DNA of 64,000 nucleotides from the NCBI RefSeq assembly GCF_018350175.1, contig NC_058368.1, forward strand, positions 108,316,001 through 108,380,000. The letters are read 5' to 3'. Position numbers and translations under genes: made by a program. The notes beneath the pieces are model-generated. The model saw only the letters and a program-made list of their open reading frames with translations, had not been told where the DNA came from and did no database searches. This DNA comes from Felis catus. Taxonomy: Eukaryota. Positions 2,111-44,468 of this stretch are shown piece by piece (within the stretch, counting starts at the first letter, position 1; every line of letters begins with the position of its first letter).

Positions 2111-2937
2111 GAAATATAATAATAATGCAAACATAAAATGTAAAGATACATAAACACAGAGACTTAGTCACCACTGTAAATGTCCACCAAAAGGGGACTG
2201 GTTAAATGAAATGCCAACAGCTGTTAAAAAAACTGTGGTAAAACAACACATTCTGAAACAGGAAAGTATTCAAGGTATATTGCCAGGTGAGATGGGTAAG
2301 TAGAAGAAAAGTACAGTGTATCATTTGGGGTGCAGAGAATGTGAACACATTTTATGTGCACTCAAATTTCTGGAAGGATATATGAATCAATGAACAATTG
2401 TTAATTCTGGGGAGTGGAGACTTATATTCTATCCTTTCTCTGCAATTTGATTTTTCAAAAACTTTATGTTCCTTTAAAATAAAAAATTAGTTAAAATAAC
2501 TCAGACGTGTAATGCTGAATCTGAAAGTTTACTAAGTATTAAAGAAATCAAATAAAAGGTTTGTGCTATTAAATGAAAAAGAAGTAAGCAAAAAGTTCCA
2601 TATGCACACTCGAGAAAAAAAGAAAAATTCCAGTTTTACAATCCTTGGCCACACTCTTGAGTTGTTTTAGGTCTCATCGAACATTAGGTCAAAAATTCCC
2701 CCTACAAGTTTCCAAGTTATAGAGCAGCATATATACTGATTCTATAACCAAAAATATATGTATTCAAAGAAAATGATGAAAAGAATACACACCAGTCTAC
2801 ACTGGCAAGCTTATCAGTGGGTAGAAAAGTTCTGGTTCCTACTTCATTCAATTCTGTATCATGGGACTTTTTAAAAATAATAAAACACTACACAGAAACA
2901 TTAAGTAATGGAATACCACAGTTTTCAAGATACTTAC

Positions 2938-2952
2938 AGTAAAAACCAACAG
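2938..2952 (-). CDS. RAPGEF6: RAPGEF6 alternative 15-nt microexon (adds AVGFY after ...DFSNPS)
   Basis: Minus strand: tgtttttgctgcctacag|CTGTTGGTTTTTACT|gtaagt; multiple of 3, no stop in phase 1, consensus donor, TGCTGC just upstream of the AG. Confidence 0.85.
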
Positions 2953-3322
2953 CTGTAGGCAGCAAAAACAAAGCAAAATCACAGAACAGTCAGCAATCAA
3001 AAGCAAACTATTAACAGTTCTGTAGCTTTCACCCAACTTGCTAAAAACAATTAAACAAGCAGCATAAACACACTGAAATCAACAGTAAGTTAATCAGACT
3101 TGGCCAATGTCACACATGTACTACAATACACACATGTGATGTACACAGCTAACCTAAAATTCAGTGCTGTCATGCAGAACTTAAGGAACTGAATTTGAAA
3201 ATTAATTGCTAAGGAGTATTTTATTCAACAAATATAAACAACACCATAAAAGCGTTTTCATAAAGTTATACATTTTGGGGTTTAAAAAATACAACTTATA
3301 AGTTAAATACCTATATGTATTC

Positions 3323-5849: not shown

Positions 5850-6007
5850 CTGAAGGATTAGAAAAATCCAGCATGCTGGTGGTAGGCTGCAGGAGATCAG
5901 GGCTGCTGGAAGAGAGTGTTCCAGGAATAGGCATTATAGCCAGACTGTGCCTGCAGTGTCTTGTTCCCACAATGCTGTCATCTTGCGACTGGCTCAGGCC
6001 TCCATCA
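5850..6007 (-). CDS. RAPGEF6: RAPGEF6 coding exon (~exon 17), 158 nt, phase 2-1
   Basis: Acceptor ttcaag, donor CAG|gtaatt; (S)[52 protein letters not shown]. Confidence 0.96.
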
Positions 6008-9000
6008 CTTGAAAAAAATGTCATACATCACTTTAAAGTAATTGAGAATTCTGAATGGTAAACGTTTCTGCTGTCTGTACACTAAGGCATAATGGAACCA
6101 ATTGAGAGTGGTGATTTAAAAAATTATATATTACAGCAATTTAAAAATAGGACAACTATAATAATGAATACACTTATAGGTTAAATTTTTAGGATAAATA
6201 AATTTTAAGCAAGTTAAACCTAAGAAATTCTACTATATCATAAAGGTGTACTTCATAATGCATCATAAAGAAATAGTCACATTGAGTTTCTGTTAGTTTG
6301 GTAAAGAAATTAAATCTGGGTGTGTTGGGAGCCTTTAAGATTGGCCAGTTTCAGTAGACACTAATATATGTATCCAACAAGGCACAACCACACCCCAACA
6401 AGGTTCACACTCACAACATAGTGGATGGTGACCTTTTAGGCAAAGGATGCAGCTGGGTCTAAACCCAAACCAAAAAATGGCAGGCTGCAGAAAACAAAGG
6501 GACCATATCCGAGTGACAAAGTAAGAGAGGTCTTTAAACATAGGAACAACCGGAGAACTGCCCAAACCAGTGATAACTGGGAAAAGATAAGAGGAAGATG
6601 GCAAACAGAAAACAATGGGTCTATGTGACAAGTACAAAGAAGAAAGAAGAGGGCCAGAAATCAATATAAAGGAAAAAGAATTTTATAGTCTCTGAAGTTT
6701 ATTCGAGGACACATTATTTCTTGTGTGATGTCTCAAGTCTAATTACTTGGCTACTCCCTAGATGAGAACATCAAAACTACAAAAGAAAGCAAACCATCTA
6801 AAGTTAACTCCCTTTAAAGTTTTAAAAAATATCAATCAAATGGCCATATGTAAGCAAATAAAGCACTCTTAAAATACTTTAAAGGTGTTACAGAGGCAAC
6901 TCTAAATCCACTGAAGAGAAAAAAATCAAAAGAAATATAACTCTGTTACTTAAGTTTTAGATACCCCCAAAAGTTCTATAAAACAAAGGATAAATGAAAC
7001 AGTCCTATGTAAAGGACAGCAATGAAAAAGATTTCCATTAGCATCAATGATCAAAACACCACTTGTTTCTAAGAGTTAAACCAATTCTTAGGTTAACATT
7101 AATTCTTATCTGTGTTTTACTCAATGTAGTATGCTACCCAATACTTGTTACACATATAGAGGTATCACAGAATACTTACCTATTATCATGGAATGCATTA
7201 AATGAATGGTATGGGATACATCCAGAATGTTAGAGGGGTCAAACACAGGACTTAGGCAGATAAGGCAACTATGCAAGATGAAGTGTGGAGGATGGTTAAA
7301 TAAACAGCTAAAGAGCTGCTGCTAGTAGCCAGACAAGGAAGACAGAGCTAGGACAAGCAAGACTGCGGAGGAGTTAGGGAAAAGCATGAAGACACGGGAG
7401 AGAGCAAAAGTGTTTCAAGAGCCAGCTAAGCATAACCTGGATAATTAGCTACATGACCTCAGGGAAATTTGTTTCTGGACCTTGGTTTCCCCATCTAAAA
7501 ATATAACTCTCTCTCCCCCAGGACTACTATAAAGATTAAATGAGGTAATGTGGATGAACATTTTGGCTCAGAGGAAAAAACAATTCCAATTTTTAAGAAG
7601 ACAGTGAATTACTTTTATTGAAATTAAAACAGAACAGTACAAAACTAGAAAGTACATTTTAAAATTTTAACAGGCTTTCTAATTTAATTGATTTTTGAAA
7701 ACATATCTGCCAATTTTTGGACACAGACAGTCAAGTAATTAAATCCAAAGAAACAAACTGTTAAAAGAAGTTAGCTGGTCCCATTAATAATCACAGTAGA
7801 ATCAAATGTAATTGTGTTAAAAAGTTATAATATTCTACTAAAGGGAACTGGCTGCCGTAAGTTACAGTAAGATGGAATTCACTATAAGACTAAGGAAAGT
7901 GTATGAAACACTAAAAGTCCTTATCTCTTTTACTGATGTTATTTAACATTACCTCTGCTTTTTAATAATCAAAGACAGGACACTGTAGAGATATATTAAT
8001 GTAAAGCTGGTTACAAATTCATGGTAATTAAGGTGTGAGCATGTATAAATGAAAACTATACTAATGTTATTATGTACAACCCATGCTATGACACGAATGA
8101 AACAGTATCTAATTGGCAAAATATCCATGCTTGTTTGGAAGCTGAATTGATAAAGCCCGTTTGCAAATATAGTAATTACATCATTTCTTACCAAAACAGT
8201 CTCCTGAGAAGATGATGCAGTAACAGAAACAACATACTTTTAAAAAATTCCTCAGTAACTCCCCAACACTAACTTTACTTAGAATAAAAGTATATTTTAG
8301 TTTCACATTATGAAACTAAGAAGGCTACATAAATACCTGTATGCTAATAAAAAATAATCCCAATGTTAAAAGCAAACAAAGTATGCTGACAAAAAAAAAA
8401 AAAAAAAAAGAAGGTAAGAAAAAATAATTTCTGATAAGCAAACAAGACAGTCTACTTCTGGGACTATGTTACAAAGAATAATATTAAGCTGTTATATAAG
8501 CAATTTGTGATTAAAAAACAAAATAAAAGCTGAATGATTTTAAAAAATAGGACATCAGATTTGCTTTTTTTCCACTGATGTCATTGGAAATTAGTAACTA
8601 TTTTTCTACTTCTAATGTTCAGGAGAATTCTTTCATTTTAAAATTATGTCATGGTTAGGGATTTGGGGAATTATCTATTCTTAATCTCAACTATTTGTTC
8701 CTTCCTTATTTTAATATTCTTTGTCTCACAGATACACATACTCTTTCTTGTAGTATTTCGAGGACAATTCTTAGAGAAGTGAGTGCTACAAAGGCAGAGA
8801 CCAAGAGCCTTTTTCAAAGAGCCTTGACACACATATGTTCAGAATTGTGGAATTAGACTCATTAAAATTTTTTCTCACTTAAAAAATATTCAAAGTAGAA
8901 AATTAAAAAATATATAGTGAACAAACAAGGAAGAAAACAATTACCTATAAAACCACACCCTACACAAAACCACAACCAACAGTTTTCCTTTTTAGTTATT

Positions 9001-12573: not shown

Positions 12574-12814
12574 CTGAACAGTTTTGGAGGCAGGATACTA
12601 AACCGTGTTTTATCCAAAATTTTCCTGATTTTGTTTCTTCCACCTGAAACAGTATTTGCTTTTATTTTCTTATTTCCTTTCTCCTGTGATGTCTGTTCGA
12701 TATCTCCTGGTACATCCTGGATTGAATGGCGATTACTTTTTTTTTCAGCAATTTTAGGAATATGAGGAACTCCATATTTTTCTTGTTCAGTCCTACTAAG
12801 TAACTCTTTGAACA
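12574..12814 (-). CDS. RAPGEF6: RAPGEF6 coding exon (~exon 16), 241 nt, phase 1-2
   Basis: Acceptor acacag, donor CAG|gtaggt; (V)[79 protein letters not shown]. Confidence 0.96.
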
Positions 12815-18751: not shown

Positions 18752-19253
18752 TTTTTTTAAAAATGTTTATTTCTGAGCAAAGGAGAAACACAGAGTGTGA
18801 GAGGGGAAGGGGCAGAGAGCGAGGGAGATACGGAATCCGAAGCAGGCTCCAGGCTCTGAGCTGTCAGCATAGCGCCCAATGTGGGGCTCGAACTCACAGA
18901 CTGTGAGATCATGACCTCAGCTGAAGTCAGACACTTAACTGACTGAGCCACCTAGGTGCCAGGGGATTACACTGACTTTTAAGAGAGCCTCACAATCTTT
19001 GATTGTTTGCTTAACTCTGTATTTGAAAAATTATTTTTACAAATAATAGGTTATTGGGCGCCTGGGTAGCTCACTTGGTTAAGCGTCCTACTCTTCGTTT
19101 CAGCTGAGGTCATGATATCGCGGTTTGTGGGTCTGAGCCCCACATCGGGCTCCAGAGTGAGTGCAGAGCCTGCTAGGCATTTTCTTTCTCTTTCTCTCTC
19201 TCTCTCAAAATAAATAAATAAACTAAAAAAAAAAAAAAAAAACTTATTAAAAA
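18752..19253. mobile_element. Two CanSINEs head to head (- 18752-18960; + 19056-19253)
   Basis: TSDs ggattacactgactt and caaataataggtta. Confidence 0.9.
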
Positions 19254-28199: not shown

Positions 28200-28900
28200 A
28201 TTTTTTTTTTTAAACTCTGGTAGGATACACACAAAAGCCACCATTTAAACCACTGTAAGGTATACAATTCAGTGGGATTTTGTAGTTATAGGTGTGCAAC
28301 TATCACCATTACCTAGTTCCAGAACATTTTTATCACCCATTAAGGAGTCAGTCACCTCACATTCTGCCCTCTCTTCTATGTGGAATATTTCATACAAACT
28401 GTGACCTTTTGTGTCTGGCTTCTTTCACTTAGCATTACGTTTTCAAGATTGATCCATGTTGTGGCATGTACTACATTCCTTTTTATGGCTGAATTAATAC
28501 TTCATTATGGCTATACCACATTGTGTTTATCCATCCATCAGTTAATAGACATTCGGGTTGTTTCCCCCTTTTGGCTATAGTCAGTAGTGCTATGAACGTT
28601 GGTATATAAATTTTTGTTTGCATACCTACTTTCAGTTCTTCTGAAAAAATACTAAAAGTAAATGCCAGGTTATATGGTAATTCTGTTTTACTCTCTGAAG
28701 AAATGCCAAACTGTTTTCCAGAGTAGCTATAACATTTTACATTACTATCAACAATGTCTGAGAATTTCATTTTCTCCAGTCACATCCTTGGCAGTGCTTG
28801 TTACTTCCTTTCCTTTTTGAAAAGCCATCCTAGGGGGTGTGAAGCAGGATCTCACTGTGGTTTTTTAAAGCTTTTTTTTTTTTTTTTAACGTTTATTTTT

Positions 28901-28931
<31 letters not shown>

Positions 28932-29359
28932 CGTGCACGCACATGGAGGAGGACAGAGAGAGGAAACACAGAATCCCCAGAAGGCTCCGCAATGTCAGCG
29001 CAGATCCCAACACACAGGGCTCAAACTCATGAAATGAGAGATCATGGCCTGAGCCGAAAGTGAGTCGGACGCCTAACAGAATGAGCCACCCAGGTGCCCC
29101 TATGTCTGTGGTTTTAATTTGCATTTCCTTATAATGAATGATGTTAAATGTTTTTTTAAGATTCTAGTTTTTTATTTAATCTCTACCCCTAACGTGGGGA
29201 TGGAACTCCTGAACCGAGATCAAGAGTTGCATGCTCCACCATCTGAGCCAGCTAGGTGCTCCTTAAACATCTTTTTCATTTGTTTGCTAGCTATTTAAGT
29301 ATCTGCTTTGGAAAAATCTCTATTCAAGCCCTTTATTTCTTTTTTCTTTTAAAAGATTC

Positions 29360-43242: not shown

Positions 43243-43997
43243 ATTTTTTTTAATGTTCATTTTTGAAAGAGAGAAAGAGAGACAGCGAGCACGAGTGCAG
43301 GAGGGGTTGAGAGAGAGGGACACAGAGAATCTGAAGCAGGCTCCAGGCACTGAGCTGTCAGCACAGAGCCTGACGCATGGCTCAAACTCACAAACTGTGA
43401 GATCATGACCTGAGCCAAAGACAGATGCTTACATGACTGAGCCACCCAGGCGCCCCTTAAAAAGAAAATTCTTAAGGGAGAATGGAAGTCAAGGGTACAG
43501 TTTGTGAGAAGGGTGCTTTTAAGGATATCTGCAAAGTAAAGAATATAACCTATATTTACAATTGTCTTAACTGTACTTTTTCCAAAGTAGAATAAAAAGA
43601 AAAAGAATGAATAATATCATTTAACAGAGATTAAACTGATAAAATGTTACAAGTATACCAGAAGGATGAGGCAAAGTAAGAATTAAAAATAAAAAAGGAA
43701 GTCAAAAACATGCTAGAATCTTACAAAAGAATTTTCTTCTTCTTACAAAAGAATCTTGTAATTTATTTATTTTTTAATTATTATTATTTTTTTTAACGTT
43801 TATTTATTTTTGAGACAGAGAGAGACAGAGCATGAACGGGGGAGGGGCAGAGAGAGAGGGAGACACAGAATCGGAAGCAGGCTCCAGGCTCTGAGCCATC
43901 AGCCCAGAGCCCGACGTGGGGCTCAAACTCACGGACTGCGAGATCATGACTTGAGCTGAAGTTGGACGCTTAACCGACTGAGCCACCCAGGCGCCCC
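43243..43997 (-). mobile_element. Two CanSINEs (43243-43456; young copy 43762-43997)
   Basis: Heads gccacccaggcgcccc; TSDs taaaaagaaaattctt and aagaatc(t/g)tgtaattta. Confidence 0.92.
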
Positions 43998-44468
43998 AAG
44001 AATCGTGTAATTTAAAAATAAGTACATAAAACAAGCTATGTAGAATCCAAGGTCTAATTCTTTGACTAAGCAAAGGGAAGTTAGGTTTTTTAAGTTAGGT
44101 CATTTTAGATAAAATGACCATCAGGAGTGGAAGTCATTGCATGATACTTCTGAGGATGCAGGCCTTGGAAACAGTTTAATTCTCTAATAACTAGGTGAGA
44201 ATTTTAAATATGTATTACTCAAAATGTCCAACATATAACAAAAACTTACAAGAGAGAAGGAGGAGGAGGGAAATGTAATACATAACGAAGAGAAAAATCA
44301 GTATAAAGAGACCCAGGAATGAGAGAGATGGAATTAGGAGACATCAACTTCCAACATTGTAAGTAAGTTTTAAGATATAAAAGGAAATATAAATGTAAGT
44401 AGGGTGAAAATGGGAAATCTAAATAAATGTAAATTCTAAGAAGAGTAAACTTGAAAAGAGGCAATAAA

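Follow-up and report, generated by a model that had tools for sequence, protein, structure and literature searches.

We examined a window of 64,000 nucleotides of the Felis catus genome (NC_058368.1, positions 108,316,001 to 108,380,000), in which RAPGEF6 is encoded on the minus strand. Eleven exons in this window matched the felid RAPGEF6 protein P0035, a sequence common to cat, tiger, leopard and lion records, at 96–100%, splice-boundary residues included. The identity of the gene as RAPGEF6 / PDZ-GEF2 was given by the CNB-REM-PDZ-RA-CDC25 order of the Pfam domains together with this sequence identity. The features of the region, in the order of transcription, are the following:

12574..12814, minus strand: coding exon 5' of the 12-nt microexon, residues about 614–693
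8192..8203, minus strand: second microexon, 12 nt, Ser replaced by RRLFC, UGC at -16, donor gtaaga, orthologue of mouse MmuEX0038815
5850..6007, minus strand: 158-nt coding exon, residues about 695–746, with the conserved SSSSPDL motif
2953..3007, minus strand: 3' splice-site region with cag acceptor, UGC motifs and branch-point-like CTGAC, from the sequence
2938..2952, minus strand: 15-nt RAPGEF6 cassette microexon, phase 1-1, Asp replaced by AVGFYY, from splice sites, isoforms and the mouse and human orthologues
2932..2937, minus strand: consensus 5' splice site gtaagt, from the sequence

The 158-nt exon, equal in length to its mouse counterpart, sits between the two microexons, and the three introns that lead from the exon at 12574–12814 to the 15-nt exon measure 4,370, 2,184 and 2,897 nt in the window and 4,146, 2,072 and 2,409 nt in mouse. 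The window ends before the RA-domain exon, which in mouse is 5.5 kb downstream of the microexon, versus the 2.9 kb left here. A run search returned 24 runs without tissue labels, and 20 of them contained at least half of the words of exon 5850–6007. The same exon encodes an S-x-S-[NS]-P-D-L motif (P0035 residues 726–733) that was kept in about 40 of 50 distant PDZ-GEF homologues, within a linker that is otherwise disordered; in some homologues the region reads RSxSNP, which we take to resemble a 14-3-3 site. Elsewhere on the minus strand we observed recurring segments that look like short interspersed repeats, with runs of CT and tails of A/T (about 1450–1720, 19075–19222, 28856–29048 and 43392–44065), presumably similar to carnivore SINEs.

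Upstream of the 15-nt exon we found three UGC motifs, starting at -9, -12 and -23 (2961, 2964 and 2975), a branch-point-like CTGAC at -41 (2993–2989) and an acceptor whose AG is the only one from -57 onward, while no UCUC/CUCU element of the SRSF11 type was present within 100 nt upstream. Spliced to exon 6007–5850, which ends in phase 1, the 15 nt read ...DFSNPS-A-V-G-F-Y plus one base. The next exon is beyond the window and the junction codon was taken from annotated protein isoforms, in which it is Tyr, so that the protein reads AVGFYY-IPDQV if the exon is included and D-IPDQV if it is skipped. The frame is preserved (NPS-D-IPDQV becomes NPS-AVGFYY-IPDQV) and one Asp is replaced by six residues. 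The preliminary description of this DNA had proposed a frame-preserving RAPGEF6 microexon ahead of the RA domain, with UGC near the 3' splice site, a consensus donor and a Tyr codon after A-V-G-F-Y; the splice sites and the annotated inclusion isoforms bear out each of these points, and the 15 nt are confirmed as a real cassette exon of felid RAPGEF6.

We also scanned the window for the same pattern under strict thresholds (YAG, pyrimidine tract, UGC, a length that is a multiple of 3 and at most 27 nt, and GTRAG), which were chosen after the candidate had been seen. Two matches were recovered on the gene strand (the exon at 2952–2938 and the 12 nt at 8203–8192) and none on the opposite strand of the window. 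Markov shuffles (n=40) gave a mean of 0.43 matches per window, and 2 out of 40 gave at least two; given this result and the post hoc thresholds, the pattern of motifs is by itself no more than suggestive, and the case for the exon is carried by its annotation, its conservation and the PSI values in the literature. Six further candidates from a looser microexon search were set aside: five had lengths that were not multiples of 3, and one was 30 nt long and had no UGC.

Among 190 RAPGEF6-like proteins, 145 carried NPS-D-(I/V)PDQV, 37 carried NPS-AVGFYY-IPDQV and one carried AVAFYY, and the remaining 7 were read-through, other or unmatched sequences. The insert had been thought to be missing from felid annotation, a claim that is contradicted by the RefSeq models of four felid species: Panthera pardus (XP_019277636.1), Leopardus geoffroyi (XP_045343894.1 and XP_045343941.1), Puma yagouaroundi (XP_040300329.1) and Neofelis nebulosa (XP_058572188.1 and XP_058572634.1). 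None of the five sequences named Felis catus had it, among the members listed for two felid clusters (15 of 101 and 15 of 22). In the curated mouse sequence NP_001239423.1 we found the inclusion form, and in human NP_057424.3 and P0288 the skipped form; none of the human proteins retrieved carried the insert. A search with the junction peptide gave 1,020 matches; this query favours inclusion forms, and the result speaks for taxonomic range and not for frequency. Among the best 120 matches, all of which had YY before the RA start, 111 read AVGFYY, 4 AAGFYY, 2 AIGFYY, 2 AVGLYY and one AVAFYY. The matches listed included gene models of mammals, among them marsupials, and of lizards, snakes, turtles, alligators, birds, frogs and teleosts. 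The insert is thus conserved at the peptide level across vertebrate gene models, from mammals to teleosts. Short records that combine one RAPGEF6-like exon with intron-like sequence (P0001, P0002 and P0004, and others such as P0367, P0369 and P0371–P0383) are probably gene-caller artefacts and were left out of the acidic-residue count given below.

The mouse counterpart is catalogued in VastDB as MmuEX0038816, a 15-nt exon assigned to the eMICdep group in table S2 of PMC8797185, a group that this paper defines by Srrm3/4 knockdown and Srrm4 knockout data. The same table places a 158-nt exon before it and, before that, a 12-nt microexon. The felid and mouse exons thus agree in length, in the 158-nt upstream exon, in the peptide AVGFYY and in the neighbouring 12-nt microexon, and they differ in the length of the upstream intron (2,897 nt versus 2,409 nt in mouse) and in that regulation was measured in mouse and is extrapolated to the felid copy.

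The human counterpart, HsaEX0052287, is a RAPGEF6 exon of 15 nt that appears among the 314 SRRM4 targets tabulated by Head et al. 2021 (PMC7935315). According to these tables, its PSI in HEK293 cells rose from 0 with GFP to 85.5 with SRRM4, and the dPSI between wild-type and eMIC-deleted SRRM4 was 60–83 at 24 h in 6 out of 6 cancer lines; at 7 days, two lines had values of 19 and 50. The same source gives a PSI of 23.1 in mature neurons versus 1.7 in progenitors, of 27.9 in whole brain, 12.7 in frontal gyrus, 58.9 and 62.2 in cerebellum and 82.7 in retina, and of 0 in non-neural tissues with one exception (3.26). Inclusion in human brain samples is partial. The human exon resembles the felid one in gene and length while being SRRM4-induced, neural and retinal. 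The distance from the 15-nt exon to a downstream 24-nt exon is 19,755 nt in human and 19,892 nt in mouse, and AVGFYY was the sole recurrent five-residue insertion in primate sequences (12 out of 33). Gene, length, distance to the 24-nt exon and this single recurrent primate insertion lead us to identify the felid exon as the orthologue of HsaEX0052287. Separately, 14 out of the 33 primate sequences shared a recurrent four-residue insertion (TNQL/TNPL) relative to human Q8TEU7, at about residue 1429 of human P0288.

These published tables, through the mouse and human orthologues, support the assignment of the exon to the neural SRRM4/SRRM3 class, its presence in human and in VastDB, and the inclusion of the human exon upon SRRM4 expression, all of which had been suggested or proposed as checks from the raw DNA. 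The felid exon shares with the eMIC class a length within 3–27 nt, frame preservation, a consensus donor, UGC near the acceptor, a long AG-free stretch and conservation throughout vertebrates, and it differs from the class in having no UCUC/CUCU in the 100 nt upstream. According to the available part of bioRxiv 10.1101/2024.09.17.613571, UGC between branch point and acceptor is typical and not obligatory, and our reading of this source is that the upstream UCUC-type element is accessory rather than required. The text seen of bioRxiv 10.1101/2022.04.02.486809 counts RAPGEF6 among the host genes of IsletMICs, with the exon not specified. Points against are that, of the rapgef6 exons, the zebrafish tables of neural exons in PMC12626424 contain the 24-nt one alone and not the 15-nt one, and that no match to Rapgef6 was found by gene name in 8 supplementary files of PMC7821500 or in 12 of the 18 supplementary files of PMC9303857.

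The second microexon changes Ser694 to RRLFC in 9 of the 190 RAPGEF6-like proteins, with the variants RRIFG in a marsupial and RGLFG in teleosts. Its mouse orthologue, MmuEX0038815, belongs to the Neural group of PMC8797185 and is not classed there as eMIC-dependent; the 158-nt exon is flanked by two catalogued neural microexons, of 12 and 15 nt. An alternative 5' splice site of exon 12814–12574 was also considered as the source of RRLFC and was rejected, as it yields a stop. Among 509 proteins, 29 had both inserts, 6 only that of the 12-nt exon, 136 only that of the 15-nt exon and 183 neither, while 155 were unscored; we did not use these counts as evidence, because gene models and the query bias them. 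A third RAPGEF6 microexon, exon 21A (24 nt, HsaEX0052288), is a NOVA2 target reported to lower the Rap1 interaction, according to the part of PMC10178952 available. It is, like the 15-nt exon, a frame-preserving microexon that encodes a predicted disordered stretch adjoining a domain, whereas it is located after the RasGEF domain and outside the window, encodes KKRWRSLG and carries the published functional claim.

In the inclusion isoform P0125 the insert comprises residues 747–752 and the Pfam RA match begins at 755, so that the insert ends three residues before the RA domain. We built AlphaFold models of the REM-to-CDC25 region for the inclusion and the skipped form (63-row alignments; mean pLDDT 81 and 79). 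The PDZ-RA linker (226–350, insert included) had pLDDT < 50, and the RA strands and helices were identical in the two models; such low values would be compatible with an insert that folds on a partner. No solved structure matched the RA/linker region, and a fold search, whose matches were Epac2 and SOS1-type GEFs, was silent on the insert. At the position of the replaced Asp, an acidic residue was found in 25 out of 37 aligned distant homologues (18 D and 7 E), with 13 of the 50 rows unaligned; this may partly reflect a split codon beginning with the exon-final G. Crk-type YxxP and LIR-type FxxI, which we considered as candidate motifs of the insert, would presumably fit it only loosely. The part of PMC7325102 available held no site information for the PDZ-RA linker, and in the openly accessible full-text literature we found no experiment on the function of the peptide.

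Taken together, the exon is very probably a RAPGEF6 microexon that is conserved among vertebrates and that SRRM3/SRRM4 cause to be included in the neural tissue of human and mouse, with the felid copy likely behaving alike. The published tables give sufficiency of SRRM4 in human cells, dependence on Srrm3/4 in mouse, and restriction to neural tissue and retina in human; the felid exon is likely regulated in this way, by orthology, and the UGC motifs at -9, -12 and -23 are the putative elements that would be used. The opposite view, that the 15 nt are a chance intronic match or a relic left unspliced in felids, has in its favour that shuffled sequence produces such patterns at 0.43 per window. 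Yet these 15 nt encode the very peptide found in the models of four felid species and of vertebrates at large, and their position and exon spacing match those of the mouse event, and we regard that view as having a negligible probability.

For the peptide itself, the likeliest role, ranked above a direct tuning of the RA domain or little effect, is that of a short hydrophobic, tyrosine-bearing binding or phosphorylation motif at the edge of a disordered linker, a reading to which we give about an even chance. The AVGFYY patch would be placed immediately N-terminal to the RA domain, within a linker predicted to be disordered, and would likely leave the RA fold as it is. The preliminary description had suggested that the insert could tune RA-domain (Rap1/M-Ras) binding; in that case the peptide would pack on the RA domain or on bound M-Ras/Rap1 and shift the affinity for the GTPase. 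The end of the insert, three residues ahead of the first RA strand, and the loss of the frequent acidic residue upon inclusion would agree with such tuning, but the acidic residue may in part be a split-codon effect, the insert falls in a stretch of pLDDT < 50 that the Pfam RA match does not cover, and in AlphaFold it takes no confident structure and the RA elements stay unchanged. Moreover, the Ras-binding edge of RA domains is formed by strand 2 and helix 1, not by the N-terminus, which also speaks against tuning. The RA domains of Rapgef2/6 do bind GTP-bound Rap1 and M-Ras (according to the part of PMC5946393 available), a point in favour of RA tuning, which we nevertheless find unlikely. 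We are similarly doubtful that the exon is real and regulated while its peptide alone has little measurable effect, as one of many small SRRM3/4 tuning events. In the available text of PMC12626420, most of 45 zebrafish microexon mutants had a minimal or no larval phenotype, and the predicted disordered linker that holds the insert varies in length among distant homologues, both of which would suit a small effect; against it, the peptide is near-invariant from teleosts to mammals, with YY in all of the best 120 matches, and in the same screen the strongest behavioural phenotype came from a microexon in the paralogue rapgef2. That rapgef2 microexon is a different exon, of 24 nt (PMC13281805), and the text available of PMC12626420 and PMC13281805 mentions rapgef2 and not rapgef6.

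Returning to the preferred reading, that of a tyrosine-bearing motif, we examined tyrosines in PDZ-GEFs in a post hoc test of the 28 representatives (out of 147) that had a readable S-x-S-N-P-D-L motif as well as a readable RA start. The records are related: by sequence they represent about two lineages, and two rows have an identical stretch. Between motif and RA start, YY or FY occurred in 9 of 24 non-vertebrate-like sequences and any Tyr in 17 of the 24, while the vertebrate-like skipped forms had no Tyr in this stretch (0 out of 4). Shuffles gave a mean of 1.46 for YY/FY and none of 5,000 reached 9, and the Tyr content of the stretch was 6.9% versus 1.8% upstream. The tyrosines of the distant homologues lie farther from the RA start than those of the microexon. 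The carriers of a constitutive YY/FY in the linker were P0414, P0416, P0424, P0441, P0457, P0464, P0476, P0493 and P0494. On these sequences, the tyrosine pair in distant PDZ-GEF linkers would be a lead, not a result. By extension, the microexon could restore to neurons a tyrosine pair that is constitutive in many distant PDZ-GEFs and, with the 12-nt microexon, could build a neuron-only signalling linker, for example a docking site for a tyrosine kinase or SH2 domain, through which RAPGEF6 would be connected with receptor signalling upstream of Rap1; we consider this scenario distinctly improbable.

The 15-nt exon is already known: it is catalogued, appears on published SRRM4 target lists and is present in curated mouse RefSeq. 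As a discovery it is of little weight for this reason, and a genuine neural microexon was nonetheless recognised in the preliminary description from raw DNA. RAPGEF6 is a Rap activator tied, in the sources as far as available, to cortical development, amygdala function and schizophrenia copy-number variants, and given these neural ties an isoform-specific partner, if found, would be of modest but real interest.
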